The notes beneath the pieces are model-generated. The model had not been told where the DNA came from, did no database searches, and was given only the letters and a program-made list of their open reading frames with translations. 64,000 nt of DNA. Source: a virus. The translations under genes and the position numbers were made by a program. The stretch's first letter is position 1. Each line of letters opens with the position of its first letter. The DNA is taken from IMG/VR virus record IMGVR_UViG_3300029554_000001. One strand, written 5' to 3'. This document shows, one piece after another, positions 2,613 through 50,016 of the stretch.

Positions 2613-3320
2613 TCAATCTTCTTCATCAAGCTTAAGAAGTCTATCTTTATATTCTTTTTCAATGCGTTCGCGTTCTAACTTCTCTGCTTTGCGCTGATTT
2701 TTCTCTACAATACTGGGTCTAAAATACCCTCTTTTATCACAAAAACGTTTCATTGTAGAACGATTAACATGAAAAAGTTTTGCTACATCTGCGTAACAGT
2801 TGTCTTGTTCAACAATCAATGCCTTAATGGTCTCTTCGTATTGAGTTAACTTTGTACTTTCTCCTAAAGAACCTTTCGGTCTACCAAGCTTTACTCCACT
2901 TGCTTTTCTCATCGCAAGTGCTTCCTTGGTTCTCTGACTAATAAGATTACGTTCAATTTCAGCAGAAAGTCCAAAAGCAAATGCTAAGACTTTGCTCTGA
3001 ATATCATCGCCTAATACAAATCCATCTTTGATTGTTCTTACTTGACAGCCTTTTTCCATACACAAAGAAAGAATGTCCATAATCATATAAAGACTTCTAC
3101 CAAGACGAGAAATCTCAGAGCAAATAATGATATCTCCACTTTGTACCTTTTTAAGAAGTTTTCCTAACTTACGCTTTTCGGGATTCTTTGTGCCAGAAAT
3201 CGTTTCTTCAATCCAGCCATCAATTTTCATGCCGTGCTTTTCACAATATTGGTTGATTTCAAAACGCTGGTTCTCAACAGTCTGCTGGTCAGTACTTACT
3301 CGAATGTAACCAAAAGTCAT
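2613..3320 (-). CDS. small serine recombinase (resolvase/invertase family)
   Basis: 235-aa ORF. N-terminal catalytic motif GYIRVSTDQQ, then SRLGR and a C-terminal HTH region. No in-frame TAG; stops at TGA. Confidence 0.9.
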   Translation of the reverse strand: MTFGYIRVSTDQQTVENQRFEINQYCEKHGMKIDGWIEETISGTKNPEKRKLGKLLKKVQSGDIIICSEISRLGRSLYMIMDILSLCMEKGCQVRTIKDGFVLGDDIQSKVLAFAFGLSAEIERNLISQRTKEALAMRKASGVKLGRPKGSLGESTKLTQYEETIKALIVEQDNCYADVAKLFHVNRSTMKRFCDKRGYFRPSIVEKNQRKAEKLERERIEKEYKDRLLKLDEED

Positions 3321-3996: not shown

Positions 3997-5146
3997 ATCG
4001 CCTAAAGCTGTTGTAAATGAAGAAGCTAAAATGATTACTATGACTTAGGATAAACCTGAAGAAGATGTTTCATTGAAGGCTATTCAGCAAAGATGGGCTA
4101 CTATTTTTGGTAAATACGCTTCTACTGGTTTTGACAACTTGGCTGGCGCTTGGGCTATGTCTTGGAGTCAATTAAATAATCCGTTTTTGCAGAATCAACG
4201 TATTAAACAAGTTAACGCTAAGGCTCAAAAAGTTCAATCAGAAGACCTTCAAAATGCTTTAAACAATCCAGAAAACTCTGAAATGACTTTTTAGAGAATC
4301 AGTATGTGGCTGTATTATACTAATTATGTTTACAATATTTTAGTAAAACTTAATAGAGATACTCCCTTATTTAATTATTATTATATCCCAGAGTATGTTG
4401 ACTCGAAAGATATGTCTACCGAAGCTTTTAAAAAAGAAAGTCAAAAAGTCGATAAGATTTTAAAAGCTTTTAAACCAAATTTAACTTTAAAAACTATTAC
4501 TACTCAGGTGAGTTTGGAAGGTAAATCTTCTTATTTACCTCGTACAAGCTATGATAAGAATGATGTTAATTTTTTTGTCATGCAGAAACTTAATACTGAT
4601 ATGGTTAAATTGATTGGTTTTGGTAGTAAACAGTAGTTTACTATTGCTTTTAATATGGCAATTTTCCTTCAACCAGCTTATGATGTTAGTCAGTATCCTC
4701 AATTTATTCAGGATGTCTGGAATCAAATGCTGGAAACAGGAATTGTTGTTATAGATTAGAAAACTAAGAAAAAGAGAATTTCTCCTAAAGCGAAACTTCC
4801 CGATGGTCACATCTTGGAAAGCAATGGAGAAAATTATATGTATTGGGTAAGATTGCCTCAAGATTTGTGTTATACATTCTATTTTGATGGCTCTCATCCT
4901 AATGCATTCCCTGATACAATTGGCTTGTTTGATGATTTGACAGACTTGGATGACTATAAATGGTTGCAAGCAAATTTATTAAGTAAAGGTGTTAATAGTG
5001 TTTTAACTGCTGAGGTTCCTATTACGAAGGATGCCAAGGCCCGGTCCGACTCTACTGTTATTACTCCTGATACAATTCTTGGTTATCAGGATTTCTTTGC
5101 GGAGAATATTTCAGGTAATATATTGCCTTTCTTCGCACCATTTAGT
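3956..5146 (+). CDS. portal-like protein, exon 1
   Basis: GGGAGG SD 9 nt before TTG 3956. ORFs 4073, 4304 and 4814 share one frame, joined by TAG at 4046, 4292, 4634 and 4757. The portal call rests on size (633 aa spliced), position at the head-module start and general sequence character only. Confidence 0.55.
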
Positions 5147-8273: not shown

Positions 8274-8612
8274 ATGGGCTATGTTTATTTTATAACAAAT
8301 GGGGAAAATATTAAAATAGGATATACTAAAAATTCAGTTCAGAAAAGACTAAAACAATTAAATACTGGCAGTGATAAGCAATTATATATCTTAGGATATA
8401 TGAAAGGCACTATGGCTGATGAGGAAAACCTTCATTCTAAATTTTAGCAATATAAAATTAGAAATAATGGAGAATGGTTTGAGCCATCAGATGATATATT
8501 GGACTATATTAATATAGTTAACCTTGTTCCTAATTGCTACGTTCGGAAGAACGAGGCTTGGAATAACAAAGTAATGGCTATGACTTCTGTGCCATTGTCA
8601 TTTACATCATAA
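8274..8612 (+). CDS. T5orf172 / GIY-YIG-like domain protein (free-standing endonuclease-type gene)
   Basis: MGYVYFITNGENIKIGYT..R...L..(27 aa)..E..LH.KF-TAG-QYKIRNNGEWF pattern. TAG at 8445-8447 is read through to TAA 8610-8612. Confidence 0.55.
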
Positions 8613-8634
8613 GGAGAAAGGAGGAAGAAAAATA

Positions 8635-10548
8635 TTGGATAAAAAAGTTCTGAAATTTGAACTTTCTCCGCAAAGTTTGAAAATTAAGAATGTGTTAAAA
8701 AATGACTTTATTGCTATCGACGTTTACGCGATTTCTGATGTCTACCCTAATAGAAATAATAGCTATTTCCCTGTGTCTGCTATGCAAGACGCTAAACCTA
8801 CCTTTTATAATAAACCCGCTCTTGGTGCTTTTGATACTACTCATGATGACTTTAAAGCTCATGAAATGGAATATAGATGGGATAATGAGTTACAACAAGA
8901 TTACTTTGACTTTACTAATGGTAAATGTGAAGTCCCACTTGGCGTAATTCGTGGCGAAGATTTGGTTGAAATTGTCGAACATGACGGTCAAACTTGGGTA
9001 CATTTTACTTGCGTTCTTTGGGCTAAATATGCTTATAAACAAGTTAAAAGATTGCTTAAGGATACTAAAAAGAAAATTTCTGTAGAAATAGAAGTCCTTG
9101 AAAGTCATATAGATGAAAATAAAGTCGAAGTAATAGATAGATTCATTTTTGATGGATTTACTATTCTTGGTTCTGCTGTTACTGAAGCTATCCCTAATGC
9201 ACATTTAACCATTCTTGATAAAATTAATGACGCTGTTTATCAGAAACAGGAAAAATGCTTATCTTTCGCTTATAAAGAGTTGGAAGATAATAACAATAAA
9301 GATAAAAATTCTGGCTCTGATACAGATAATAAAAATGAGGATTTCGATTCCATTATTCCTGATAACGGAATTGTTAATGAAAAAGTGGACGAAATCACGA
9401 TGGATAATGAACAAAGAGGGGAGGAACCAAAAACAATGACCTATGAAGAGAAAAGACAACTTCTCGAATCTTTTCTGAATAGCGGTCTTGATGAGAATGC
9501 TTCTCATTACAGTGTCACGGAAATTAACGACAATGTTGTTTGCTTTAGCCTTGATGATGAAAATTTTAAAGCTACTTATAGCATCAACGAAGAAAATGTC
9601 GCTAATGTTGATATGGACGCTAAAGAAAAGATTGTACTCTCTAAGGATGAAAATCCTGAAGATGAGAGTGGTAAAGAGACTGAATCCAAGGAATGTGAAT
9701 CTGAAGACGGCAAGTGCGAAGTCTGCGGTAACAACCCTTGCACTTGTGCGCATGAAGATGACGATGGTAATAAGGATGACGGTCATAAAGAGAATGAGTC
9801 TGAAGATGACAAAAATGATGATGACCACGACCATGATGATGATAATGATGATAACGACGATGATGATGGCAAAAAGGAAACCGAGGCTGAGGATAACGAT
9901 GGTGAAAAGAAAATCGAAAATTGCGAAGACCCCGCTCAGTTTGCCGCTACTGATGTAACTGTCGATGAATCTCATGCTGACCATGGACAGATTGAAGGTG
10001 AAGAGCTTGGTTCTCCTAAAGTTGATACTGATATCCTCAAAGAACATGATGATGGCAGTATTTTAGTCGGCCAACCTTCTGGTGAAAGTAATGTTATTCA
10101 GGATACCCACTATGCTGTCGGTGATGAACAACTTACTGCTGATGAACTTTATGAGAGATTCAATACTCTTAATACCTCTTTCGCTGAACTGACTGAAAAG
10201 TATAACGCTCTTAATGCTCAGTTTAACGCAAAGAAAAATGCCGAACTTTATGCTTTGGCTTGTTCTTTGGTTGATTCTGAAGAAGATTTGACTGAGGAAA
10301 ATGCTACTAATATTAAGGCATTTATGAAAGAAAATTGTGATAACAGTACTTATGCTTCCGATGAGGAACTTAATGAGGCTGTTGACCATAAAATTGCAGA
10401 TGCTCTTTATGCTCAGAAGAAACTTAGTAGAAAAGCTAAGGAGAAAGAGTTTTCTGCTGATATCGTTAAGGATAAACCTGTTGTTACTGAAGTGAACGAC
10501 AGCGCAAATAACCTTAAAAATGCAATGAAAAATCTTAATAAGATTTAA
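8635..10548 (+). CDS. acidic scaffold-like protein (possible protease-scaffold fusion)
   Basis: AAAGGAGG SD before TTG 8635. 637 aa. Globular N-terminal ~200 aa, an extreme D/E/N tract (about 9700-9900) and a C-terminal coiled coil. Lies between the portal and capsid genes. The protease call is not supported by clear catalytic motifs. Confidence 0.5.
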   Translation: MDKKVLKFELSPQSLKIKNVLKNDFIAIDVYAISDVYPNRNNSYFPVSAMQDAKPTFYNKPALGAFDTTHDDFKAHEMEYRWDNELQQDYFDFTNGKCEVPLGVIRGEDLVEIVEHDGQTWVHFTCVLWAKYAYKQVKRLLKDTKKKISVEIEVLESHIDENKVEVIDRFIFDGFTILGSAVTEAIPNAHLTILDKINDAVYQKQEKCLSFAYKELEDNNNKDKNSGSDTDNKNEDFDSIIPDNGIVNEKVDEITMDNEQRGEEPKTMTYEEKRQLLESFLNSGLDENASHYSVTEINDNVVCFSLDDENFKATYSINEENVANVDMDAKEKIVLSKDENPEDESGKETESKECESEDGKCEVCGNNPCTCAHEDDDGNKDDGHKENESEDDKNDDDHDHDDDNDDNDDDDGKKETEAEDNDGEKKIENCEDPAQFAATDVTVDESHADHGQIEGEELGSPKVDTDILKEHDDGSILVGQPSGESNVIQDTHYAVGDEQLTADELYERFNTLNTSFAELTEKYNALNAQFNAKKNAELYALACSLVDSEEDLTEENATNIKAFMKENCDNSTYASDEELNEAVDHKIADALYAQKKLSRKAKEKEFSADIVKDKPVVTEVNDSANNLKNAMKNLNKI

Positions 10549-10572: not shown

Positions 10573-11100
10573 ATGAAATTTATTGAGAAGATTTTGATGG
10601 CTTCTGAAGATGTTAAAAGCTATCTGGTTTCTGGCGTTTGCAAAGACAAGGAACTCGCTGATGGTTCTTTGGTTGAAATTGGCGACCTCATCGACCATGA
10701 GGTTTATAAGGGTCTGAAGGATATGAATACTCGTGAGATTAAGCCTTACGCTGGTACTGGTCGTGTCGGTATCGTTGACTATGTTGGCGTTTCTAAGGGC
10801 GAAATCATGGGCGTTGTCTACAGTGAGGGTGTTAAGACTTGCGGTCTTCCTTGCCCTGCTGGTGCTCATACTCGCGTTCGTTGCCCCAAGCTTGGTGACG
10901 AGTTCTATCTCGGTGAAGATAACTTTGAGTCTGCTCCTACGGCTGGTCAGTTCGCTGTTGCTGGTTCTGATGGTCAGTGGGCTCCTGCTGCTGTTGCTGC
11001 TGCTGACAAGCTCTGTGTTAAGGTCGAGTTTGGCAAGGATAAGATTATCGGTGTCAAGAACGAGGGTAAGAAGTTCTATTGCACCGTTGTCCACGAGTAA
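10573..11100 (+). CDS. abundant capsid-associated protein candidate (decoration/cement?)
   Basis: AAAGGAGG SD. 175 aa. GC-richer, strongly biased codon choice like the capsid and tail-tube genes. No TAG. Sits directly upstream of the major capsid gene. Confidence 0.45.
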   Translation: MKFIEKILMASEDVKSYLVSGVCKDKELADGSLVEIGDLIDHEVYKGLKDMNTREIKPYAGTGRVGIVDYVGVSKGEIMGVVYSEGVKTCGLPCPAGAHTRVRCPKLGDEFYLGEDNFESAPTAGQFAVAGSDGQWAPAAVAAADKLCVKVEFGKDKIIGVKNEGKKFYCTVVHE

Positions 11101-11106
11101 TTTTAA

Positions 11107-11143
11107 ATTGTTCTTGAATAATTGTTCTTGAATAACTTGAATA
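11107..11143 (+). repeat. tandem 14-bp repeat ATTGTTCTTGAATA x2 plus partial ACTTGAATA
   Basis: Read directly: 11107-11120, 11121-11134, partial copy 11135-11143. Lies just upstream of a promoter-like element and the capsid gene. Confidence 0.7.
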
Positions 11144-11156
11144 GTTTAAAAAAATA

Positions 11157-11184
11157 TTGATATTTACTTTATGATTTTTATAAA
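11157..11184 (+). promoter_or_regulatory. sigma70-like promoter upstream of the major capsid gene
   Basis: TTGATA (11157-11162), 16-nt spacer, TATAAA (11179-11184). Confidence 0.45.
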
Positions 11185-11208
11185 TTAATTAAGGAGGATT
11201 TTGTTATT

Positions 11209-11704
11209 ATGAAACAAATTTTTAGTTATAACAAATTCAACGAAGATGTCGCTGATGGTCTCGTTGAAACTTGCTATTCTTTGGCTCAGAAGTCCATTGA
11301 GGGTAAGAACAACACCCCTGAGTATATTGAAGCTAATAAGACCTTTAACCAAGAGTTTATGAAGTATTGTGTTGAGAACGCTGGCATGAAGTGGAGCGGT
11401 CTCGATATGATTAAGAATCCTATGGTCTACAAGAAGAGTAACTTCCTTGAGACTTTTGATACCATTCTTGCTGGTGCTATCACTCCTGTTGTTCCTACTG
11501 TTGCTGCGTCTGGTTATGAACAGCTTTATGATGTCACTCAGGTTGGTTTCGGTGATGTTGCTAAGTATGAAGTCGATAGCAATGAGCTCTTCATTGTGAA
11601 TAGCCTTGCTGAAGGCATTGCTCGTGGTGGTGTTCAGACTGCTTCTAACACTGAGTATACTATTTCTGCTAAGAGAGAGCAGATTTCTCTCTATGTTGAC
11701 TGGT
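11209..11704 (+). CDS. major capsid protein, exon 1
   Basis: AAGGAGG SD. Biased codon usage. Exon ends in phase 1 at U 11704 (P1 model). Spliced product is 370 aa. The capsid call rests on position, size and expression-type codon bias. Confidence 0.6.
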
Positions 11705-17687: not shown

Positions 17688-18695
17688 TTGGCAATATCTA
17701 AAGAGTTACAAGCTAAAATGGAAATGTACGAACAAGCCTATTTCGGTCTGGATTTACCAGTGCCATTTAAAGGCTTGTTAATTTATCCAGTTTTAACGAA
17801 AGATTACTATAATTTTTATGCTAATTTATCTTGTTTTACTCAAGATAAAAATATTAAAGAAATAAAAGTTGTAGATGAAAATGGAATAGAAACTACTAAA
17901 AAAGTGGCTAATCCTGAAGGTATTGGTATGTCTTATATGGCATATTTAATATAGAATATGGAAAACCAAGAATATGGACCTATGGTTACTTCTTAGGTAA
18001 TTAATATGTTCGAACTTGTGCTCCATGAAAAAAATGGTTTGTTTTGTCCTCATTGTGGATTCAAACGAACTTAGTTTGAAGTTATCAAAGAATATGCTAA
18101 ATTCCAAGAAACATTACCTGATAATTTAAGCGAAACTGAAAAGAAAGTTAAAGCTCTTGAGTTTATTAATAATTATGCTATATGTCCAGAATGTAAAAAC
18201 AAAATGAGAGATATCTATGGAATTCAAACGGGTGCTAATGGCGTGAAAAAATTATATATATACGATATAGTTTTAGAACCAAAAGAACTTGATGAATTTA
18301 TAGCTATTATTACACACCAAAATATTTTGGATTACGATGGAGATAGGTATATCGACCCCAATTTAAGAGAAGAAATGGAATTAAAGGCGAGGATGCAGAA
18401 CAAGAATTACACATCTCCAAGTTTGGAAAAATAGCTTGTCTGTATATCCATTAGTTCTCCATACACTATGGAGATGTTAAAAGAACAAGTAAGTTTGAGA
18501 AAACTTTCTTTAATGCTAAAAACCATTGATGCTAAGGGGTATTATTACGCTTAGATTTAGGGTGCTATGTCTCGGATGGTTTAGTTTAAGGATGGAGACA
18601 TTCACCATTGGATATTTACTGATAACAAGAAGGATATGTCTAAGGAAATTATGACAATGAATGATTTCCAAAAGAAGTTTGCTTCTGTTACATAA
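17688..18695 (+). CDS. hypothetical protein with CxxC..CxxC zinc ribbon
   Basis: ORFs 17688 and 18204 share one frame, with 7 in-frame TAG. Contains FCPHCG and ICPECK. TAA at 18693-18695. Confidence 0.55.
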
Positions 18696-19501
18696 TGGAG
18701 AGAAAAGTGGAAAAATTTACGACTGAAGAAAAACAAAATATTATAAAAGAATATGAGTCTGGATTGTCTTCTGGATAGCTGGCAGAAAAATATCGGTGTA
18801 ATAAATCGACAATTTGCGACATTCTTAAAAAGAATGGAGTTAAAGCAAGAGATGGACATTTTAAGAGATAGTATTCTTTTAATGAACATTATTTTGACAA
18901 AATTGATTCAGAAGATAAAGCTTATTTTTTGGGTTTGTTATTTGCTGATGGATGTAATTTAAAAGAAAGAAATGTAGTTTGTATTGAGTTGGTAAAAACT
19001 GATTCTGCTATATTAGAAAAATTTGCTGAAGTAACTGAAAATAATAGACCATTGTATGATTATAATCACAAAAATGGTTAGACTTCTACAAAATTAAGTT
19101 TTACTAGTAAATATTTTTGTGAAATTCTTGATAAACTTGGATGTGTACCAAGGAAGTCTTTGGTATTGCAATTTCCAGATTATTTAGACAAATCTCTTTT
19201 AAGACATTTTCTTAGAGGATATTTTGATGGAGATGGAAGTATTACTTTATATAGAGGTAAAAGTACGATTAATCGGCAAGCTTCTGTAGTAAGTAGTAAA
19301 GATTTTATAGAATCTCTTAAAGAAAAAATAAACCAAATTAACCCGAACATACATTACATTACTAGGTCAACTGGTAATGGAAGTAGTTTGGTTTTATGTA
19401 GGAAAGATTCTATTAAAGAATTTTTATCTTATATTTATGAAGACTGTTCTATATATTTAGAAAGAAAATTTCTAAGATATCAAGAACTAATAAATAAATA
19501 A
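18695..19501 (+). CDS. LAGLIDADG homing endonuclease, free-standing, directly upstream of intron C
   Basis: ATG overlaps the previous stop (TAATG). Frame of ORF 19160-19501 with 3 in-frame TAG. Two LAGLIDADG-type motifs, YFLGLLFADGC and LRGYFDGDGS. N-terminal HTH-like region. Confidence 0.75.
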
Positions 19502-19515
19502 GGAGGATATATATT

Positions 19516-19522
19516 ATGTTAT
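19516..19522 (+). CDS. major tail protein, 7-nt exon 1 (ATGTTAT)
   Basis: AAGGAGG SD 8 nt upstream of ATG 19516. GTTAT (19518-19522) pairs with GTAAC (19556-19560), with U.G at the splice site. Phase-1 end matches the phase of exon 2. Confidence 0.55.
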
Positions 19523-19916
19523 CGGATGCCGAGTCCGCATTTGCTTGGCTAAAGAGTAACCGTATACAGTGATGTGTATGTAAAAATAGTCTTTGAATTG
19601 CTGGAATTCCCTAAAGCTGTTTATGCTACAACAAAAGGATGAAATATGCCTAATTGTGAATGCTACGAAAGTAAAAAGAAATAAACAGATGATATATGGT
19701 TAAATCCTAAGTGTTGAATAATGGGTAATCAGCCGCTAAGTCTTGAATAAAGAAAAGTTCAACGACCATTTCGAAAGGAAGTATACCACAAGTGATTGGT
19801 GGTAGAAGTGGAGACTGCCTTTTAATAAAAGGTAATGATATGGTCTAATCTTATATGAAAATATAAGGCGAAAGCAAAATAAGAGTAGCGTCTTATTTTA
19901 AATTAAAATGTTTTAG
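19523..19916 (+). mobile_element. group I intron C (major tail gene), ORF-less
   Basis: 394 nt. P2 CGTATACA-GTGA-TGTGTATG at 19561-19580. Core blocks homologous to A and B (TTGCTGGAATTCCCTAAAG at 19598, GGTAATCAGCCGCTAAG, GTTCAACGACCAT). Terminal G 19916. Confidence 0.6.
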
Positions 19917-20938
19917 CTGGTGTAGGCCGCGCCACTCTTCTCGATGGCGAGCGCCTTGTTGCTACTGCAAATACTCTGATTGATTCTAGTATTACTATTG
20001 GAATCAGCTTCGAGGACCTGCGTGCTGGTATGGGCAATAAGCTTTATGGTCGTTATGCGCATACTTCTACTTTTGACCTCAAGCTGACCGATGCCATGTT
20101 CTCTCTTGAGTATCTTGCCATGAATACTGGTTCTGAGGTTGAACTCGGTGGTGACGCTATGAAAGACGAGAAGCTCACTGCTGATGCTACTGGTAAGGTT
20201 ACTTTGTCTTATAAGGCTGTTCCTATGGTTGGTAATACTAATGTTTATGCTTATATTAAGAAGTCTGGCACCGACGAAGGCTATCAGCGTTATGCTGTTG
20301 CTGGCGATGGTGTAAATGAAGTTTCTCTTGGTGAGGCAATGAAGGATGCCGAAGTTTGTGTTCGTTATATGTATCATAATGATATTGCTTCTAAGATTAC
20401 CATTAGCGCTAACTTCATTCCTAAGACTCTGACTTGCATTCTTGAGGCTAATCTTTACAACGGTGGTTCTTGTGATGTTGAGACCTCTACCCTCGCTGGT
20501 AAGGTTATCATTAAGGTTCCTCGTTTCATGCTCAACGGTTCTCAAGAACTCAGCATGAGCGCTTCTGGTGTTTCTAACACTTCTATTGAAGGTTCTGCTC
20601 TTGCTTCTGGTTGTGCTGGCTGCGACGGCGACGGCGTTTATGCTGAAATCGTTCAGGTTCTTGAAAACAAGACCGCCGCTGACATGTTCGCTAGCATTGT
20701 TATTGAGGATAAAAACCAGACCGCAAAGGCTGGCGATAAGATTGAACTTAACGTCTATGCTTGCCCTGTTGATGGTGCTCCTATTAAGTTGAATCCTGAC
20801 CAGTATACGGTTGCTGTTACCACTGGTGCTAGCACTTATGCTAATGGTGTCGTTACCGTTGTGGATACTAGTGTCGTTACTGTTAAGTTTGTCCCTAATG
20901 ATAAGCTTTCCGACACTATGAATATTACTGTTGCTTAA
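19917..20938 (+). CDS. major tail (tube) protein with C-terminal Ig-like domain, exon 2
   Basis: Frame of ORF 20030-20938 is open back to 19907. T + CT makes TCT, giving MLSGVGRATLLDG... Strong codon bias and no TAG. The C-terminal ~90 aa have a Big_2-like pattern. Spliced product is 342 aa. Confidence 0.6.
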
Positions 20939-20967
20939 TTTAATTAACGAACAGGAGATTAAAATAA

Positions 20968-21135
20968 ATGCTTTGCAGTAATGCACAGCAGGAAAATGGT
21001 GGAAGAATAACGTGCAGAGTCGATGGGAAAGAACCTCATCGGCTCTGTCCTTATCAAAAATATTGTCATTAGAAGTGTGCATGGGAAAATTCTCCTGCCA
21101 TGACGAGCTGTGAGAGGAGATTAAGAAATGGATGA
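20968..21135 (+). CDS. small Cys-rich protein
   Basis: AGGAG SD. 55 codons with one TAG. Six Cys, including CPYQKYCH-TAG-KC. Overlaps the next gene by 8 nt. Confidence 0.4.
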
Positions 21136-21499
21136 AATGAACAGCGCTTTTGATATTGAAGTTTCTCCTAAGAAAGAAAACAAGGAGAAGCAGATTCAAT
21201 ATAAGAAGTATGACAAAAACAAGCACAACAAGGGAATTGTAAAAGAAGAAATTGTTGAGTCTGTTAAGCAGGAGTTAGAAAGTGTCGCTGAAGAAGAAGT
21301 TAAGCCTATTGCCGAAAAGTCAAAATTAAAAGAAGGTTGGGCAAGAGGGATTGTACATAGTAAGTGGAAGACTTCTGCTTGGGTAATTCTTGAAAATGGG
21401 AAAGGTCTCACGATGAATAATTTTGGTAAATACTCTATTGGTGAGACTGTTGAATTTGAATTACCTTCTTGGTACAAAGATTTACCGAAGAGTAAGTAA
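21128..21499 (+). CDS. hypothetical protein
   Basis: 123-aa ORF followed by a strong terminator. Confidence 0.55.
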   Translation: MDEMNSAFDIEVSPKKENKEKQIQYKKYDKNKHNKGIVKEEIVESVKQELESVAEEEVKPIAEKSKLKEGWARGIVHSKWKTSAWVILENGKGLTMNNFGKYSIGETVEFELPSWYKDLPKSK

Positions 21500-21699: not shown

Positions 21700-21833
21700 A
21701 AATATGAAAAATATTAAATGGAGGAAGTGAAGGCGAATCTACAACATGAGTTGTATATACTTATATTAATTGTTAATTATTGAAGGTAATAATTAAAAAA
21801 TATAAGTTCCTATAATAAAGTAGGGGGTTAATT

Positions 21834-23282
21834 ATGAGTAAAAGCAAAGACAAGATTAGAGTAAGTTTTAAAAATTCTGGAGCGGCAGAAGATGTAACAG
21901 GTTCTTGTACTGTTATTACATGGGGAAAGCCAGAACGAACAATTCTTGTCGATTGTGGATTGGTACAAGGTAATCAAAGTCTTTTGAAAGAATATCAGGC
22001 TAATAGTGCAAGATTTACATTTAAAGAGAAGAATGTAGATTATGTATTTGTGACCCATTCGCATGTTGACCATTCAGGTCGTTTAAGCCTTTTAACCAAA
22101 AGAGGATTTGATGGAAAAATTATTGTGCCTGATGGTAATAAAGATTTAATTCGAGAATTGCAATTAGATAGTGCTAAGATTATGTTAAGAGATGTTGAAG
22201 ATTTGTCTCGAAAACTTAAAAGGGAATATTCTCCGATTTATGAAGAATCTGATGTAAAAGATATGCTTACTCATATTGAAGAATATCCTTTTAAGGAAAG
22301 AATTAAATTAGACGATGATGTAACATTTGAGTTTATTCCTTCTGGACATATTGTTGGTGCTGCTCAATTGATTCTATATATCAAAAATGGTAGTGTTACC
22401 CGTAAAATAGCGTTTACTGGTGATTTAGGTAATATTAGAACCGAAACTTATTATGCAAATAAGTTTGAACCTATTCAAAATGCAAATTTGTTAGTGGGTG
22501 AATCTACTTATGCCAGCAAAGAAAAAAGTGCTAAAGCAAAAGATAGAGAAAAAGATTTAGAAAAGATTAAAACTTTTGTGTATGATGTTTGTATTGATGG
22601 AAAAGGAAAGTTACTTTTTCCTTCTTTCTCTTTAATGAGAAGTCAAGTAATTTTAACCATTCTTTACGAAATGTTTAAAGATGACGAGAATTTTAATATT
22701 CCTGTTTATGTTGGCTCTCCTTTAACTTGTAAAATTAATAAAATTTTTAATGAAATTTTAGAGGGTGAGCAACTTAAGAGATGGATTGAAGCTTCTTCAT
22801 GGGATAAGGTTAAATTTATCAATAATTATGAAGAGATTGAGCAAATTTTAGTAAAGCCTGACCCAGCAATTTTTATTTCTAGTGCAGGAATGCTTAACGC
22901 TGGTTTTGCTGTAGGTATTGCTGAAAAGCTCCTTCCAAGTGCTAAGAATGGAATTGCATTTATTGGGTATTCTGTTGAAGGGTCTTTGGCTTGGAAAATT
23001 AAACAAAAGAAGACTAAGACCGTTGCCATTAATGGAAAACAAATCCTGAGTCGTTGTAGAGTAATTAACTTAAATAGTTTTTCAAGTCACATGCAAAGAG
23101 ATGAGCTTTGCGATTATTACAGCGGTGGTCTTGGAACTAGCGGTTATGGTAAAGTTGTCCTTCAACATGGTAATATGAAAGATAGAGTTGAACTGAGTAA
23201 AACTTTATCGGAGCTTATTAGTAAAAGAAATAGAACAGACAAAGTTGTTGTAGCTAATAAATCAACAGAAATTTTATTGTAA
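21834..23282 (+). CDS. MBL-fold beta-CASP-type nuclease (RNase J/CPSF/SNM1-like)
   Basis: GGGGG SD. 482-aa intact ORF. Metallo-beta-lactamase motif THSHVDHSG plus downstream D/H motifs. No TAG. Confidence 0.7.
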   Translation: MSKSKDKIRVSFKNSGAAEDVTGSCTVITWGKPERTILVDCGLVQGNQSLLKEYQANSARFTFKEKNVDYVFVTHSHVDHSGRLSLLTKRGFDGKIIVPDGNKDLIRELQLDSAKIMLRDVEDLSRKLKREYSPIYEESDVKDMLTHIEEYPFKERIKLDDDVTFEFIPSGHIVGAAQLILYIKNGSVTRKIAFTGDLGNIRTETYYANKFEPIQNANLLVGESTYASKEKSAKAKDREKDLEKIKTFVYDVCIDGKGKLLFPSFSLMRSQVILTILYEMFKDDENFNIPVYVGSPLTCKINKIFNEILEGEQLKRWIEASSWDKVKFINNYEEIEQILVKPDPAIFISSAGMLNAGFAVGIAEKLLPSAKNGIAFIGYSVEGSLAWKIKQKKTKTVAINGKQILSRCRVINLNSFSSHMQRDELCDYYSGGLGTSGYGKVVLQHGNMKDRVELSKTLSELISKRNRTDKVVVANKSTEILL

Positions 23283-23330: not shown

Positions 23331-23795
23331 TGACACAAGAGGTCAGGGTTGCCAGAGAAGTTGTATATTGGGCTACCATCCAGTGATGCAATGGAGGCTT
23401 ATTAGGGTTGTCAGGTTTCCACAGGGTAGCAATTAAAACTGTCCGACCAACATACTTTCATGCGTGGTTTCAAACGGAAGAGAAAGGCGTTTTAAGGTGT
23501 CGGCATAAACCTTATCATCTTATATACCATGTTGTATATTTAGACCAGCTACGAGGCATAGTCTTGCAGCTTTTTAATGTGGTGTCCATGAGCACAGGAT
23601 AAGGACTTAAAGAAGACCAAATTTACGGGTTCGTAAAACGGGTCTGAGCCATATATCTCATGTACCATGTGTACAAGGAGTTCCTTAAGACGTTAGAGTT
23701 TAGCTTTAGCGTTTTATGCAATGAAAAAGGTGAGACAGGGAGTAGCTACCTTTTGTTTTGCCCCAACAAAACAATTATCATCTTTTTCATTTTTA
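23331..23795 (+). ncRNA. candidate structured non-coding RNA (class unknown)
   Basis: About 460 nt with no credible ORF in a genome otherwise packed with genes. Visibly more G+C than its surroundings. Chain of helices: 23341-47/23442-48 enclosing 23372-77/23425-30; 23472-76/23488-92; 23522-27/23534-39; 23614-18/23641-45 enclosing TTTACG-GGTT-CGTAAA; a 14-bp helix 23686-99/23703-16; 23725-31/23748-54; and the terminator-like 23753-60/23767-74 followed by a T-rich tail. The strand is assumed. Confidence 0.4.
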
Positions 23796-29796: not shown

Positions 29797-30438
29797 ATGA
29801 GTGATTTATCAAATACAGTTTCAAAAGCATTTGAAGATGCTTGTAAAGAAATTGTAAAGAAAATAGAAAAACAAATGCCTCAAAGAATGGCAACTATTAA
29901 GAATGAAGTTTCTTTTGAATATATGTCTTTAGTCAAAAATGTTTTTGAAAGTGTTTTTGATAATTATTACGGGGACAATTATGATAAAGATAGTTTAATG
30001 GATTCTTTGTTTTTTGTTCCGAGTACAAAAAATTTGTGGCCTGATTTAACTTATAATAAAAACAAATTAAAATTTTTAAAGCCTATAGAAAAAGAAAAGA
30101 AAGCATTTAATAAAAATGCAGTAAGAGAATCTACAATAAAACAATTTGGCGATACAGATTTAGTTTTTGATATGGCTACAACTTTATTTAATGAGGCAGA
30201 ATTCGAAGAGGATTTTGCGGGTTTTGATTCATTATCTTAGTGGGATGAAGTGCAAGAATTAACATTCGATTTTTGGAATATGACAAGAGCAAATAATAAT
30301 AGAAACAATTTAAGTCTTTCTCCTATTGAAGAGACTTATAAAATAGCTTATACACGAAGTCAACGAGAATTTGAAAAGCGTTTTAATAAATAGATTAAAC
30401 CGAAAATGCTACAAAAATATGGTATTAAATTAGGATAA
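29797..30438 (+). CDS. hypothetical protein (tail assembly chaperone candidate by position)
   Basis: ORF 29797 is extended through 2 TAG to TAA 30436-30438. Confidence 0.5.
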
Positions 30439-30452
30439 GGAGGAGATTGAAA

Positions 30453-33400
30453 ATGGCTCAAAATCAATACGAAGTAGAAATAAAGCTTGGCTTGGACAAA
30501 AGTACTTAGCTTTTAGACCGAGAAATTGAGAAAATAGATAAAACACTTACTGATAAAATGAGTAAGTTGAATAAACAATTTGAAGAATCTATCAAAGGAT
30601 AGAATTTAACTGCACAAGAAAGATTCGCAAGAAGGTCAGATTTCTTACAAAAAAACAATAGTTCTACTTAGTCTTTACAGTCACAAAAAGAGACTCTTCT
30701 TAGTAAAAAAGCCCAAATTTCTAAAATGTCTGGTGAAATTTCCAATATTGGAAGTGTAAATAGTCAATTTGACACTATTGGAAAATATTTAGCCGAAAGA
30801 GTTGATTTTATTAAACAATTAGATTCTTGGATTGGGCAATATACTAAACAAATCACAGAATTTAAGCCTGTTATTGTTGCTGCCGAGCAACAAAAAGCCT
30901 ATCAACAAAAAATAAAGAAAGAAAGAGAAAAAGCAGCGAAAACAGGCAAAGTAGACTATAAAGCTGAAACCATGGCAAAAAGGAATTTAACTGAGGAATA
31001 GTATAATAAAGAAATTGATGCCATGAGTAAATATTATGAAGCTAACGCAAAAACTAATTAGGCGGAAGAAGATAAAATTACTCGACAGAAAGAGGCTCGT
31101 TTTGCTGAGGAAATGAAAAGGATTGTAACTTAGCAAAAGAAATCTAAAATGTCGGATACGGAGTTTGAGAAACGCCGTCCACAGATAGAAAAAGATGTCA
31201 AAGCATATGTAGATAAGACTCATGCTGGTGGCATAAAAACTTTAGCTGGTTCTGATAAATGGGGTCGAAAAATAGAAGTTAGAGGCTTCCAAGAAGGTTT
31301 TGTAAAAGATTCAGATGACCACTATGTTGATGCTAAAGGCCGTGTTGTAAAAGGTACTGACACTTCTGTTTTAAGAACTACTGCATTTGCTCCTTTTATT
31401 AATAAAGAAGGTGAGTATGTTTCCGCGACTAATTCTGAAGGGCGGCTTAAAAAGTCTATTAGAGTTTATGACCCACGTTTAGCAAATATAGGAAATGTTG
31501 GACAGGTTGGAGATTTAAGAAACCAAACCTATACAGGAATAGAAAATGCATATAATTCTTTGTTGAATCAGCTTAAGATTTTAGAAAGTGGTGGAAAACA
31601 AGGAACTGAGGAATACCAAAAGATTTCTCAACTAGCTTCTTTGATTCCTGAAGTGATTAAAGATGCTTATGCCAATACTTCTTCCAAGGAAATTAAAGCT
31701 GCTTTTGAAGAAGCTTTAACTGGAATGAAAAGTGGTATTACCTCTCTTGAATCTGAGGAGTCCTCGATTGGAGGAGCTTTATATAAAAATAGTGAACTTA
31801 GCGGTGTTTTAAGAGAGCAATTAAAATTAAAAGGTAAAGTATCTAAGATTCAACGGTGGGAAGTGGGGGAGTTACCTGAAATTCCCACACAAGATAAAAC
31901 TGATAGAACAGATGAAAAGCAAATAAAGAGAGACCAAATTAGTGCTAAACAGCAAGAAGTTATTGACCAAAAACATAAAGATGAACTTTGGCATTCAATA
32001 GAAGGGGCCAAAGAAAGTACTTATGATGATAAGGGAGAGCTTTTACAATAGGGTATAAAAGATTTCTTGGCTGGCTTATCTGGTGACAAAGAATAGTTGC
32101 ACAACGCTGTTTTAGCGCTGGTAGAACAAATAGTTCAAACCGCTGGTGTTGATATTGATGCAAAACAGCAAATGAGCGAGGTTATATCTCAACAATCTAT
32201 TAATGTCCCTATAAAATATAAAGGAGAAGAGCGGAATAGTACGTTAGAAAGTGCAATCACTGGAACTTCAAGTGCTAAATATCAAGCTGTTTTAGAAGAA
32301 CAAAGAAGTAAGATGGCTGGAGGGTTATCTGAAGGATTCCAACGTATTCAATCTGCATTAGCATTTCAACAAACTGGAACAGCAGGGGATGAAGCTGTCA
32401 AGCAAGCAGTTGAGAGAATAAATTGGCTCGCTGATATTGTAAGTGAAATAGGTGGCAATTCTGAGCTAGAAGAAGGACTTCGTAAAATAGCAGAAGGTAA
32501 TCCTCGGTTTACTGGAATGGACGCAAACACTATTGCAAATTCTATTTCTAAAATTTATGCTTTTTCCGAGGGGATGGACGCATCTCTTTCTCATAATTTA
32601 AACAATTTAAACCAAGCGAGATAGGCACAAGGACTTAAACCTATCAAAGAAGAAAAATACAGAGAAAAATTCTTCAAAGAAAATCCTGAAATAGCTCAAA
32701 AATATGAAGAATCTAAAGCTGCAAGAGAACGTTATGATTCAGTCGAATCTGACAAGGTAAGTGACAAATTACAAGCGTTCTTTTCTGTTGTTGGACAAAC
32801 AGAAGAAGGGGTTAATAAGTTTATTACAGTTCTTGCTAAAGCTTACGAGAATTTGAACGGAACTATTTCTAAAGTTGTAAAAACAGATGAGGGAGACCGT
32901 AGAGCTACTGCTTCTGCTCAAAGATGGGTGGAAGATACTGTAGAATATAGAGTGAGTTCTTCTGGCAATGCCATTAACCCAAACAAAGGAGTGAATGCTC
33001 CCTATTATCAAAGAGAGGGTATCAGAGGTTAGGATGTAAACTGGGAAGAAATTACAAGTAATCCTTCTCCTGCTTTAACTACCAATTTGTAGAACAAAGC
33101 TGGTTTAACTGGTAATATTTATGATGGTAACAGTCCCCAAGAAAATGCTGAGATTGCAAAAAGTATTCTTGAACAGAAAAAGAAAGAGCTTGCAAGAGTA
33201 CAAGCTTTAGTTGCTAATCCTAAGAGTGAAGCAAGTAAAAATAAAAATTTAAAACGTATTCAAGAAATTTAGGCTGAAATAGATTTTCATTATAAAAACT
33301 GGGATGAACTTGTTATGGCTCAAACCCCAGTTGTTAGAAAAGGTAAAAAGAATACAGGAAAAGATGATTTTAATGTTCCTGTTGCAACGCCCTTGAATCC

Positions 33401-36400
33401 TGAAGCTGAAAGAATCAAGAATTTAAAAGAAAGTGTAAAACAATCTGGTTTTTCTCAAGGGTCTTCTTTTACTGCTAAAAATTCTGTTAGGCGGACTTTT
33501 GGTGGAACAATTACTGGTATAAAAGGAGAAGGAGCTCGGCAAGTTATTGAAGCTCTTTTAGAAGACGGTAAAACTGTTAAATATACGTTTGATAGTTTAT
33601 TAAAATAGCTTATTACTTACTCAGAACAAGCTGCAACAACAGTTGAGGATGTTTCTGAACAAATTAAAACCAATGTAATTCAAGATTCTCAACAAATAGA
33701 ACAAGCAATTGAATCTACTCCTACTATGGCAAATGAAACGTCTCAAACAGAAAAAGCTTTACAACAAGAAGAGGCGGCTATAACCGATGTTAATACTGCT
33801 TTAGATAAACATGAAACAGAAGTTTTATCTGCGGCAGATGCAGAACAACAAAAGATTTTAGTGTCTCAAGATTTAGTTAAATAGTTAACTAAAGAAGAGG
33901 GCGCTTTAGATAAAGTAAGTGAAAGCGCCAAAGAAGCTGAAATTCAAAAAGGTGTTACATATACATATAAAGATTTGCAATCTTATGATGATGCAACACA
34001 TACTTATACCGATACTAATGGTAATAAGTTAAGAAGTATTACTCAACTTGGTGGAGCTTTAAAGGGCTTTATTCCTTCTGCAACAGCTATTGCTGACGAA
34101 AAAGCTTTTATGGCTGCTATTGCTAACACTCCTAAAGGAGAACAATTAACTGCTGAAAAAATTGGCATGACCGCGCAAGACTTTGCTAAAAAGAAAAATG
34201 CAATTATAAGTAGGGAAAAAGGCAATTTAGAGCATGAGGTTTTTGACCTTTTAAGTAAGACTGGATTTTCTGGAGTTGAAGGTTTTGCTGGAAAAGATGT
34301 TGAGGTAAAATGGAACGGTGCTACAGAGATAGTAGATGCTCAAGAACAATTCGCAAGAGTATTAAAAGAAAAAGCAGACCTTTTATCCAAGCTTGGTATT
34401 GACAATGCTGAACAACTTTTATTACAAGCTGTCGAGAGTTATACTAAAGCAATAAATAACGCTCATATTCAATTAACTCCTTTCTCTGAAACTCCTATGG
34501 CTGCGAGTTTTAGTGGTCCAAAAGGAACTTTTGATTATTCTTTTACACCCGACTAGATTGCAAGGAGTTCTGATGGTTCTCCACAGAATTTTATTCTTGA
34601 TACCAAAACTGGTAAGACTTATGGTACAGAAAGTTTCCAACTTGCAGGACAATTGTACGGTGTTTTAGCTAATGCTCAAAACCCTGAATTCCAAAAATTA
34701 TATCAAGAAAGTGGAATTGACACAGATAAAGATTTTTCACTTTTTATCGCCGATGTTAAAGATGGATTTACTCAATTAATTCAACACATGGCTTTAACTG
34801 AAGAGGAATTTTACGACCTCCTTGTTAGAGCAAATGATATTATAGATGGCAAGGCTGAACCTTTAACTAAAGATGAACAAGCAGCTCTCATGAATAGAGA
34901 GATGACCACAGGTAGAGTTTTTGGTAGGTCAGAATCTCCTGTATCTGAAAAAGCTGCTAATAATAATTTTGTTTCTTACGCTCCTGATGAAAATGGTAGC
35001 ATTGATAAAAGAGAGCAAGCTATTATTGGTAGTTATTTAACTGAGTATCAGAAATTAATAAATTATCAAACCCAATTAAATAATTTAAAGAAGCAACAAG
35101 AAGAATTAGCCCAAAATGGTGTCGGTTATACTAGTGAAGAATCACAAAAACTTGAACAACAAATATCGACCATGCAATCTACAGTTAATCTTCAAAAGAA
35201 GATTATGGCGGAAAAGAATCTTGATTATAAGGTTTTAAACACACCTCGGGAAGCTGACAAAGTTGCAATAGGGAATGTTCTTTTATCTGACAAGGGTAGC
35301 AAACTTGCTACGCTGCAATGGGCTAAAATAAATGCGCTTAGTAGTAATAAGCAGAGAAAAAATGACACCAGTGTTACTACTCAGCAAAATACAGAAGCAA
35401 CAAAGGATTTAGATTTACTTTTAAGTCAATATAAAGAACTTCTAAGTCTTCAAAATTAGTTGAAAGAGTCTAACATTAAAGCTGAAAGTTTAACAGGGGA
35501 CAAGCAAGCCGCTCAACAAAATGCTTCTGCTAATTTGCAAGAAAGAATTGATAAACTTCGTGAAATTTCTACTCTTACTGGTGAAATAACAGATGAGAAG
35601 AGAATTGAAGAAGAAATTACAAAAGCCACTTATTTAACTGAGAGTGAAAGAGCTAAGAAATTAAATACTCTTAGAACTACAGTAGGAGAAGCAAATCAAA
35701 AGAATTTAGACATTGACACTAAATATGCTCAAGCGGCAAGAAATAATAACCCAACTCTTCAAAATACTTTAACTGGTTATTATAGAAACCTTGAAGAACA
35801 AGGTAGAATTGAAAGAGAAATTGCTAGAGCAGAAAATAAAGGAATGTCTTTAACTGGAAATGCGGCTATTGAAAATAAATCCTTTATTCATTCTCTGCAA
35901 AGTTAGAAAAACAATTTAGCAAACCAATATAAATATGACGAGCAAAAGAAAACTTTAAATGGTATTGAATTAACAGAAGAGCAAATTAACAAATTAGAAC
36001 AAGAAAGAACTCGTATCTTAAACAACAACCAAATTGAGATGGATAGAGTTGGAAATTCTGTTAATCAAACTAAAGGCTTTTTAACTCAACTTAAGGATAA
36101 TTTTAAAGATAGCTTTTCTCAAATTGGAATGGCTATAATGCAAATATTTTCTTTCCAGTAGATATAGAAAGTATTTAATGATTTTATTTCTGCTACTGAA
36201 AGACTTGACTAGAAAATGGTTGACCTTCAAATTGCAAGTGGTTATACCAAGAGTAATATTCACGATATGATGCTTGAGTTTAATGACTTGGCAAAAGAAA
36301 TCGGTAAAACTACTGAAGAAATTGCTGAAGCTGCAAACGATTGGCTTCGTGCTGGTTACGAAGGACAAGAAGCATCTCAATTAACTAATGCTTCTATGCA

Positions 36401-42001: not shown

Positions 42002-43394
42002 GAACCAAAATATGCTCTCTATAAAGATGGCTATATAAGTCAAACGCCAGAGATGGCAGAGACTTAGGAAAGACTTAATATGATTTGGTTTTATTTTAGG
42101 GAAAGGAGGAAATATGGGTTTAATTTATCAAGCTTATTTTAAAACTAATGGCAAAAGTTATATTGGATAGACAAGTAGAAATAATTTAGAAGACAGAAAA
42201 AAAGAACATTTACAAGCTTCTAAAGATAAGCCTTATCTTTTTTATAATGCTATCAGAAAATATGGTTGGAACGACATTGAATGGAGTGTTTTAGAAGAAT
42301 GCGATAATGAAGAATTAAATGAGAAAGAAATTTTTTATATAAAGAAATATAACACTTATATAGGATTTGATAATTGCAATGGTTATAATATGACAGAACG
42401 GGGAGATTGTATTAATCATTGCATGTTTGATACTAAAGATAAAATAAACGAATTGTTAGAAGAATATAAAAAATGTGGTAGTGTAAATGAATTAGCTAAA
42501 AAGCATGATTGCGGCTACACTGTCATTTATAATATTTTAACTGGTATTATTTGTTCCGAATTTACTGGTTTCTATTATAACGATAAAACCTTTTTGAAAA
42601 AATATATGAAAAAAGGCTTGAAATATACTAATGAACAAATAGATGAAGTAATTCAAAGAAATAAAAAAGGAGAATCTAATTCTTATATTTCAGAACAAAT
42701 GAATGTTCCTATTAAATGGGTTCAAGATATTTTATCGGGACGAATTATGTCAAAAAGAACTGGAATTAAACATATCACAAGAAATGAAAGACAATTATAT
42801 AATCCTGTAAATTCAAAGCGTTCTAAAGAAGAAGTTTTAAAGATGGTTGAAGATTATTATACAAACAAGCTATCGTCAAAAAAGATTTGTGAGAAATATA
42901 ATATTGTCTCTGCTCGTTTGAACGAAATCCTATCTGGTAAAACATGGAGTGCAATAACTCATTTAACAGAAGAGGATTACAAAGAAGAAAAATTAAAACG
43001 TAATCCTCCTAAAGAAAAAGCGAAAAAGAAATCCCTTTATTTATATACAGATAAGGATATTTTAGACATGGTAAATTTGTATAAGTTAGGTTATTCTAAA
43101 AAAGAGATAGCTGAAAAATATAATACAACAGAAGGATATATTTACAAAATTGTCACTGGACAAAGAAGAAACGATATAACTCATATTAAATAAATCATAT
43201 TAAGAATCCTAAGAGACTGTAATGGTTTTTATAGTAATATAAAGACCTTCGCCATCGTATTGTTGAAATATACAATATAAGATACAGTCCGAACTTACGA
43301 TATAATCTTGAAATAATAATGAAACGTAAGAGATAGGAAGAAACTCCTATCCGCTATTATTTTAATTAATAATAGTCATTAAAGTAACAGAATG
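42002..43394 (+). mobile_element. group I intron D (tape-measure gene) carrying a GIY-YIG ORF
   Basis: 7-bp P1: AGAGAGT (41995-42001) pairs with GCTCTCT (42014-42020), with terminal U.G. Helices GACTGTA/TACAGTC, CTTACG/CGTAAG and GATAGGA/TCCTATC lie 3' of the ORF. Terminal G 43394. Splicing rebuilds GT+G and changes the frame from 0 to 1, giving an in-frame 4,310-aa product. Confidence 0.65.
42114..43193 (+). CDS. intron-encoded GIY-YIG homing endonuclease
   Basis: AAAGGAGG SD. GLIYQAYF..GKSYIG-TAG-T..R...H motif (TAG 42168-42170). Repeated HTH-like modules at the C-terminus. Confidence 0.8.
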
Positions 43395-50007: not shown

Positions 50008-50016
50008 GGAGGAAAT

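Follow-up and report, generated by a model that had tools for sequence, protein, structure and literature searches.

A LAGLIDADG endonuclease gene next to a group I intron without an open reading frame in a phage tail-tube gene: a candidate pair for collaborative homing

Collaborative (trans) homing is defined in PMC6083498, PMC3984707 and PMC2790892. One described case, from cyanophage S-PM2, pairs the free-standing endonuclease F-CphI with the psbA group I intron, which has no open reading frame of its own (Zeng, Bonocora & Shub 2009, as reported in PMC6083498 and PMC3984707). In the model given by these two later accounts, F-CphI cleaves the uninterrupted allele where the intron inserts, and an intron in that place blocks self-cleavage. 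A related arrangement is described here for IMG/VR virus record IMGVR_UViG_3300029554_000001, a gut phage whose related contigs reach about 215 kb. The stretch that was analysed, called the window below, is 64,000 nucleotides (nt) long. In the window, a group I intron without an open reading frame (ORF) interrupts the tail-tube gene shortly after its start codon, and a free-standing LAGLIDADG endonuclease gene, HEG-B, lies just upstream. The comparison of related loci suggests that HEG-B and the intron are partners in collaborative homing, with a probability of about 0.62.

The locus would follow the model proposed for F-CphI and psbA. However, F-CphI is an Endo VII-like enzyme whose cleavage was shown experimentally in the work that these accounts report, whereas HEG-B encodes a helix-turn-helix (HTH) LAGLIDADG protein that is known from its sequence. 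Also, in comparison with the psbA case as presented there, the host gene is a tail-tube gene, the intron lies 7 nt into the coding sequence, and the endonuclease needs TAG read-through. T4 MobE is a free-standing HNH endonuclease that promotes the trans homing of the nrdB intron, which carries a defunct I-TevIII (PMC2790892). The likeness lies in a free-standing endonuclease that is located beside an intron-bearing gene and mobilises an intron unable to move alone, as HEG-B would do here. On the other hand, MobE is an HNH nuclease, the nrdB intron keeps its dead ORF, and the target lies in the neighbouring nrdA/nrdB sequence and is not demonstrably the insertion site; there is experimental evidence for the MobE case (PMC2790892). 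In phage ICP1, a T5orf172 endonuclease is found beside the N-terminal exon of the terminase (PMC10448857). ICP1 and the T3/T7-like examples of the same paper share with the present locus the endonuclease outside the intron, its position beside an essential late gene whose N-terminal exon is short, and the clustering of several endonuclease classes at one essential locus. They differ in the nuclease family; the exon here is only 7 nt long, and the locus presents a population polymorphism in which the intron and three endonuclease types assort separately.

The intron resembles the phage subgroup IA introns (T4 td and nrdB, SPO1, Twort and SPbeta; RF00028) in its P3-P9 core, the extra hairpins predicted between P7 and P3', the U.G pair at the 5' splice site and the terminal G. 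In contrast to them, it has no internal ORF, its P1 helix lies over the start codon, and the large P1 loop (33 nt) contains its own hairpin. A ribozyme at a translation start, the splicing of which governs initiation, is also known from Clostridioides difficile, where a cyclic di-GMP (c-di-GMP) riboswitch is combined with a group I ribozyme (PMC3984707). As outlined in that source, the splice is located in the 5' untranslated region, is gated by the ligand and builds the ribosome binding site. Here, the splice site follows both the Shine-Dalgarno (SD) sequence and the AUG, and there is no evident ligand sensor. The components of the locus are all of known kinds, and the arrangement has precedents with Endo VII-like, HNH and T5orf172 enzymes. 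No description of the present locus, of a tail-tube example or of a free-standing LAGLIDADG partner was found in the literature. The LAGLIDADG-HTH partner, the TAG dependence, the 7-nt exon with P1 on the start codon and the many natural allelic states are particular to this locus.

Splice boundaries and the endonuclease gene

The elements of the locus are listed below in the order of the window.

17688-18695, plus strand: conserved upstream gene, about 335 amino acids (aa), 7 TAG codons read through, stop TAA at 18693-18695
18695-19501, plus strand: HEG-B, free-standing endonuclease gene, 268 aa with an N-terminal HTH and a two-domain LAGLIDADG part
19502-19506, plus strand: SD sequence GGAGG of the tube gene, 9 nt 5' of the ATG, abutting the endonuclease stop
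19516-19522, plus strand: exon 1, ATGTTAT, 7 nt (two codons and the first base of the third), from the alignment with L001
19523-19910, plus strand: group I intron without an ORF, 388 nt, subgroup IA-like, precisely absent from intron-less alleles
19911-20938, plus strand: exon 2 of the tail-tube gene, no TAG, stop TAA at 20936-20938

The boundaries were determined by comparison with L001, the contig of the tube homologue P0001, which has neither the intron nor the endonuclease. With a stroke for the junction, its intron-less allele reads ATGTTAT/TTTTAGCTGGTGTAGG; the wider context is ...GGAGGATATATATTATGTTAT/TTTTAGCTGG and the longest one is ...AAATAAATAAGGAGGATATATATTATGTTAT/TTTTAGCTGGTGTAGGCCGC. 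The window shares with L001 the SD, the ATG and ATGTTAT, then has 388 extra bases (CGGATGCC...AAATTAAAATG) and continues with TTTTAGCTGGTGTAGGCCGC. Therefore, the intron occupies 19523-19910 with no positional ambiguity. The 5' splice site is between 19522 and 19523, and the 3' splice site is between 19910 and 19911, after AAAATG. A U ends the 5' exon and G19910 ends the intron. Splicing is predicted to join ATGTTAT to TTTTAGCTGG, by which a protein of 344 aa would be restored. The spliced product (19516-19522 plus 19911-20938) would start with MLFLAGVGRATLL, i.e. MLFLAGVGR, and 338 of its 344 residues (98%) are identical to those of P0001, an intron-less homologue of the same length and with the same start MLFLAGVGRATLL. 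All of the full-length intron-less homologues start with MLFLAG, MYFLAG or MVFIAG. Intron-less alleles differ from the window by exactly 388 nt, and removal of these restores the reading frame. Codons 3-40 in exon 2 are conserved in the intron-bearing alleles, the changes being synonymous, which speaks indirectly for splicing. GGAGG is identical in the alleles with and without the intron.

The window had been read once before, from its letters alone. That first-pass annotation placed the tube start at the SD and ATG of 19516 and the 5' splice site after ATGTTAT. Both positions agree with the present data: the intron-less homologues use the same SD and ATG, and the splice site follows from the L001 alignment and from the P1 pairing. 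However, its 3' splice site, between 19916 and 19917, was 6 nt (two codons) too far downstream, and the N-terminus MLSGVGR that it gave has to be replaced by MLFLAGVGR. The anatomy as corrected here is close to certain.

The same annotation called the gene a major tail gene. The precomputed Pfam assignment is PF27173 (YomU_Tube), the PHROG match is 2729 (virion structural protein), and the protein matches a solved tail tube protein, 8k98_A, by sequence (E value 1.9e-5). Therefore, the name of major tail (tube) gene is correct. A local Pfam scan of the tube protein gave no match. The tube family is large (351 homologue matches), and the same conserved gene is found upstream of the tube gene in all relatives.

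Other introns occur in this gene. In several relatives, a group II intron (RF02004 plus RF00029) follows about codon 232 (L153 3249-4999; L018 3755-5505; L019 3746-5497; L152 3259-5010; L156 3250-5001); the window copy is without it. The distant relative L032 (IMGVR_UViG_3300021387_000929) has three group I introns, at 2862-3190, 4125-4467 and 10926-11326 (minus strand). Two of them are at other sites in or near the tube gene, with a GIY-YIG-like coding sequence between them. In this group of phages, introns have targeted the tube gene repeatedly.

In related phages, HEG-B has a 48%-identical lineage-2 form, and a different LAGLIDADG gene, HEG-D, is 36-41% identical to it. The features within HEG-B are as follows.

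18713-18832, plus strand: HTH domain (residues about 7-46), Pfam CENP-B_N and HTH_23, model helices 10-46
18923-18955, plus strand: LAGLIDADG motif 1, YFLGLLFADGC, acidic residue D85
19208-19237, plus strand: LAGLIDADG motif 2, FLRGYFDGDG, acidic residue D180
18776-18778, plus strand: in-frame TAG, codon 28; Q at the same position in the lineage-2 and HEG-D homologues
18869-18871, plus strand: in-frame TAG, codon 59; TAG in 8 of 8 HEG-B copies examined
19079-19081, plus strand: in-frame TAG, codon 129, read as sense

HEG-B matches PHROG 4645 ('endonuclease', E 1e-61), Pfam LAGLIDADG_3 (E 1.5e-11, residues 169-247) and CENP-B_N (E 1e-5). Among 46 homologues, L79, G80, D85 and G86 of motif 1 and G179 and G181 of motif 2 are invariant, and D178 and D180 of motif 2 are at least 90% conserved. 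The structure was modelled on P0121, a 94% identical homologue, in place of the TAG-containing protein of the window. The AlphaFold model has a predicted local distance difference test (pLDDT) score of 93.2 and consists of a three-helix HTH and two alpha-beta-beta-alpha-beta-beta-alpha domains (pseudo-dimeric). The top Foldseek matches were I-Tsp061I (E 2.7e-10), I-AniI, the bI3 maturase and the I-OnuI family, with E values of 1e-8 to 1e-10; a sequence search of the PDB gave no solved relative of HEG-B. The protein family has 1456 matches and is essentially unannotated. Four more distant members have ordinary phage genes on both sides and no group I intron in the vicinity. The family is habitually free-standing.

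TAG is a sense codon across the whole window (1-64000), according to an ORF comparison of both codes. The encoded residue is probably glutamine (Gln), as the sequences suggest: TAG and CAA/CAG are exchanged between endonuclease copies (KPTCqVIV versus KPTCQVIV; KYqEL versus RYQEL, with CAA). Only because the phage reads TAG as sense is the HEG-B ORF intact and complete. The first-pass annotation had described a complete double-motif LAGLIDADG gene at 18695-19501. Both motifs are present, together with the HTH, but the three TAGs mean that the frame is not open under the standard code, a dependence on recoding that the annotation missed. A pseudogene with three stops was considered and is ruled out by the recoding of the window, by the conserved, Gln-matching TAGs (18776, 18869 and 19079, conserved across eight copies) and by the ratio of nonsynonymous to synonymous substitution rates (dN/dS), which is about 0.1 in the close lineage and in the divergent one. 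Thus, HEG-B is a maintained coding sequence. In the sequence TAATG, its ATG shares bases with the stop of the preceding gene, and it has no SD of its own. Its stop codon (19499-19501) is 14 nt before the ATG of the tube gene and 21 nt before the insertion site.

In two other phage contigs, L069 (2692-3486, 4490-4822) and L100 (2735-3490, 1357-1687), a gene of the HTH-LAGLIDADG family precedes a group I intron by about 1 kb, and each contig may hold another pair of a free-standing endonuclease and an intron.

Allelic states among relatives and readings of the pair

Fifty homologous loci were collected from IMG/VR, ENA, JGI and Logan, and 36 distinct ones remained after near-identical loci had been collapsed. 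The state of each locus was assigned from the length of sequence that separates exon 2 from the stop of the upstream gene, together with BLAST using the intron and endonuclease sequences. The numbers of distinct loci are as follows.

Neither element: 8
HEG-B (or the lineage-2 form) with the intron: 10
Intron alone: 5
HEG-D alone: 7
HEG-D with the intron: 4
GIY-YIG/NUMOD3 endonuclease alone: 2

A GIY-YIG gene together with the intron is found at a single partial locus, which lies at a contig end. At least six allelic states are present in the 36 distinct loci, and the intron and the endonuclease are each optional. HEG-B is absent from 26 of the 36, and another endonuclease (HEG-D or GIY-YIG) is found in the same slot, with or without the intron, at 13. 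The intron is present at all ten HEG-B loci, compared with 9 of the 26 loci without HEG-B (Fisher p = 4.4e-4). HEG-B beside an uninterrupted site was found at none of its ten loci, and hence at none of the 36 distinct loci, whereas the other endonucleases of the slot stand beside an uninterrupted site in 9 of 13 cases (Fisher versus HEG-B, p = 2e-3). At the five intron-only loci, the ancestral HEG-less intergenic region is intact. Therefore, these loci are no deletion derivatives. The introns are about 99% identical with and without HEG-B, and such a copy is also found in L015, the tube allele of which is only 89% identical to P0001. The survey marks the slot, which lies 5' of the tube gene, as a hot spot in which endonuclease genes turn over, and the intron as an independent module.

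Collaborative homing of HEG-B and the intron, the simplest reading of these data and the one favoured here, would proceed as follows. In a mixed infection, HEG-B would cut intron-less tube alleles at or next to the insertion site (ATGTTAT^TTTTAGC); the presumed target in the intron-less sequence is ...TATTATGTTATTTTTAGCTGGTGTAGG.... Repair of the break from an intron-bearing genome would always copy the intron, and it would copy the HEG-B gene too when the conversion tract crosses the shared SD/exon-1 segment of about 33 bp. In the carrier genome, the target would be split by the intron and self-cleavage would not occur. The benefit would be mutual, the intron gaining mobility from the endonuclease and the endonuclease gaining immunity from the intron. 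The TAG codons would probably restrict HEG-B synthesis to the infection phase in which TAG is read as sense; a dependence on TAG read-through has been noted in the literature for an intron endonuclease of other recoded phages. Under collaborative homing, genomes with HEG-B only would be missing because they would cut themselves. It also predicts intron-only genomes with near-identical introns and the intron beside other endonucleases, and all three predictions agree with the survey. The first-pass annotation had proposed such a partnership. The architecture and the comparative evidence (10 of 10 versus 9 of 26) speak for its interpretation, which was drawn with a wrong junction and N-terminus.

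Some points weigh against collaborative homing. The target of HEG-B is deduced from co-occurrence alone, and tight linkage (about 33 bp) could by itself keep HEG-B and the intron together. The surveyed loci share ancestry and are phylogenetically non-independent. The first 90 nt of exon 2 give a weak signal of exon co-conversion, being 95% alike among intron-bearing loci versus 91.5%. The splicing of the intron is read from the sequence. The argument on timing by TAG comes from the literature, and ARAGORN detected no tRNA gene, hence no suppressor tRNA(CUA), within the 64-kb window of a genome of about 215 kb.

The main rival is ordinary intron-less homing with hitch-hiking. HEG-B would then have its target in the HEG-less spacer or where the upstream gene ends, and its own insertion would replace this target; the intron, about 33 bp away, would be carried along by co-conversion and confer no immunity. 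The unrelated HEG-D and GIY-YIG genes occupy the slot with an uninterrupted tube gene, and under this rival the slot itself is therefore a homing target. The endonuclease hot spot is accounted for in this way, the relatives in the HEG-B family are free-standing with no intron nearby, and a very tight linkage by itself would make HEG-B without the intron rare. However, the five intron-only loci with their intact ancestral spacer and about 99% identical introns are left unexplained. The contrast within the slot is unexplained as well: HEG-D and GIY-YIG are equally linked, yet the intron is present beside some of their copies and missing beside others, and HEG-B is always accompanied by it. Hitch-hiking of this kind is considered unlikely. 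By another account, the intron lost its own ORF or the ORF moved out, and HEG-B is a later, independent arrival, so that the pairing is merely historical. Such turnover or escape has been raised for loci of this type (PMC10448857), three endonuclease types turn over in the slot, and related introns that share the core motif abound in phages, some of them with GIY-YIG ORFs. On the other hand, no ORF remnant is present in 21 distinct intron copies (386-390 nt), no sampled intron has a LAGLIDADG ORF of the HEG-B family, and history does not explain the one-sided association. An escaped intron ORF, which the first-pass annotation offered as its alternative, is also disfavoured by the free-standing relatives of HEG-B and by the unrelated endonucleases that occupy the slot without the intron. 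This account is regarded as improbable.

It is very improbable that the main role of HEG-B is that of a maturase, a splicing cofactor working in trans on the neighbouring intron, or that of a regulator which binds DNA, with no nuclease function. The maturases I-AniI and bI3 are among its structural neighbours and the protein is under purifying selection; however, both catalytic acidic residues are conserved, and the intron occurs without HEG-B in an essential gene at nine distinct loci. Therefore, HEG-B is not needed for splicing, and a role as a necessary maturase is ruled out by the intron-only genomes.

At this locus, the natural assortment of an ORF-less intron and of free-standing endonucleases at a single site is seen with unusual resolution. 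In related gut phages, alleles with the intron only, with an endonuclease only and with both are in circulation. Therefore, collaborative homing can be tested directly with one protein and two short DNA substrates. If the model is true, the arrangement reaches the HTH-LAGLIDADG family, which is without a solved or characterised member, and phages with a recoded stop codon. The 7-nt first exon is a convenient system for the coexistence of translation initiation and group I splicing. For annotation, the locus is a case in which gene callers truncate the tube protein (302-337 aa reported in intron-bearing genomes) and break the endonuclease at its TAGs.

The slot contains HEG-D or GIY-YIG/NUMOD3 genes in L008-L011, L014, L142 and L151 (about 1964-2830), in L153, L160, L162 and L168, and in L017 (2101-2925), L148 and L146 (1-110). 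These genes also carry in-frame TAGs. The HEG-less spacer (70 nt; L001 3935-3975) has a perfect palindrome, CTGATTTAAATCAG, and then an A-run; in the window it is replaced at 18698-19490. The palindrome spacer, which all three endonuclease insertions remove, may have a regulatory or terminator-like function or may serve as a target for an endonuclease.

Ribozyme structure and the start codon

The single group I match of Rfam in the window is RF00028 at 19556-19867 on the plus strand (58.4 bits versus a gathering score of 50, E 3.1e-12, full model 1-253). The lineage-2 intron copy in L021 matches RF00028 with 67.7 bits. The 21 distinct intron copies, gathered from the homologous loci, fall into two lineages that are 70-76% identical to each other and share one insertion site; the host tube genes of the two lineages are 67% identical. 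RNAalifold analysis of 16 variants gave 95 pairs, 33 of them with compensatory double changes, and a covariation term of -13.7 kcal/mol. The helices obtained were P2, P4-P6 with a long P5 extension, P7, two hairpins between P7 and P3', P8, P9 and two distal hairpins. The elements around the splice sites and the core are given below.

19518-19522, plus strand: P1 5' strand, GUUAU, from the G of the AUG to the U at the splice site
19549-19553, plus strand: P10 partner, CUAAA, pairs with exon-2 UUUAG at 19912-19916
19556-19560, plus strand: internal guide sequence, GUAAC (P1 3' strand), pairs with GUUAU
19561-19580, plus strand: P2 hairpin, loop with UGA at 19570-19572
19764-19845, plus strand: P7, GACCAU (19764-19769) with AUGGUC (19840-19845), C-G to U-A covariation among the RNAalifold pairs, also from the Rfam alignment

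MAFFT misaligned exon 1/P1 between the lineages. Therefore, P1 and P10 were checked by explicit pairing. The wobble pair at the splice site is U19522.G19556. In lineage 2, P1 is formed by GGUAU with GUACC, which is a compensatory change (U-A to G-C). All five pairs of P1, with U.G at the splice site, are kept in 21 of 21 distinct copies. P10 is possible in both lineages, and in lineage 2 it would be formed by exon-2 UUAUU with AAUAA. P7 encloses two extra hairpins (P7.1/P7.2-like), P3' (GGAGACU, 19810-19816) and P8. The two co-varying predicted hairpins between P7 and P3' suggest that the intron is subgroup IA-like. Its core motif, GGTTAAATCCTAA...AATGGGYAATCAGC, is common to at least 119 IMG/VR phage contigs; therefore, the intron belongs to a common class of phage introns. 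The statement of the first-pass annotation that the intron is ORF-less holds, and no plausible intron ORF was found under either code. An antisense stretch of 109 codons free of stops was considered and rejected, as it needs 5 TAG read-throughs and looks like noise. Single-sequence folding by minimum free energy was uninformative because the ribozyme is pseudoknotted.

At the gathering threshold, Rfam omits the introns of L019, L153 and L156, although they are 97-98% identical to that of the window. Near-identical copies in L015 and L149 score 57-58 bits. The omission is probably a filter or sensitivity effect and no evidence of decay.

In the unspliced RNA, the start codon opens an ORF of 18 codons (MLSDAESAFAWLKSNRIQ and stop), which runs through the guide sequence and ends in the P2 loop. 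P1 includes the G of the AUG; thus, splicing and ribosome binding draw on one short stretch of bases. Since P1 is formed on this G and the next four bases and the SD is 9 nt upstream, a bound 30S subunit and a folded P1 would be mutually exclusive. It is conceivable, if rather doubtful, that the intron and the codon reassignment form a timing device of the phage and that the pair does more than ride along selfishly. Splicing and initiation would then compete in a kinetic race that gates the synthesis of the most abundant tail protein, and the TAG codons would hold back HEG-B until the recoded phase of infection. If this were true, the phage would use its intron and its codon reassignment to time the tail protein and the endonuclease.

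Genetic code and other features of the window

With TAG read as sense, the total of long plus-strand ORFs increases from about 12,100 to 18,400 residues. The read-through merges fragments into genes; for example, 30429-42038 becomes an ORF of 3869 codons with 33 TAGs. Some genes of the window are without any TAG, namely the tube gene, 8584-10548, 21819-23282 and 50008-51258. The guanine-plus-cytosine content is 31% in the upstream gene, 27% in the endonuclease gene, 34% in the intron and 44% in exon 2, so that composition changes in a sharp step at exon 2. A mechanical ORF of 437 aa on the minus strand (19913-21226) is an artefact that arises from the codon bias of the tube gene. A megablast search of 18000-21000 against GenBank phages gave no near match. 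A 'drum' RNA (Rfam RF02958) was detected at 23350-23446 on the plus strand, with a score of 43.6 versus a gathering score of 43. It is located 3' of a metallo-beta-lactamase/beta-CASP gene and is found in the same place in L010 (6432-6528) and L015 (6418-6514).

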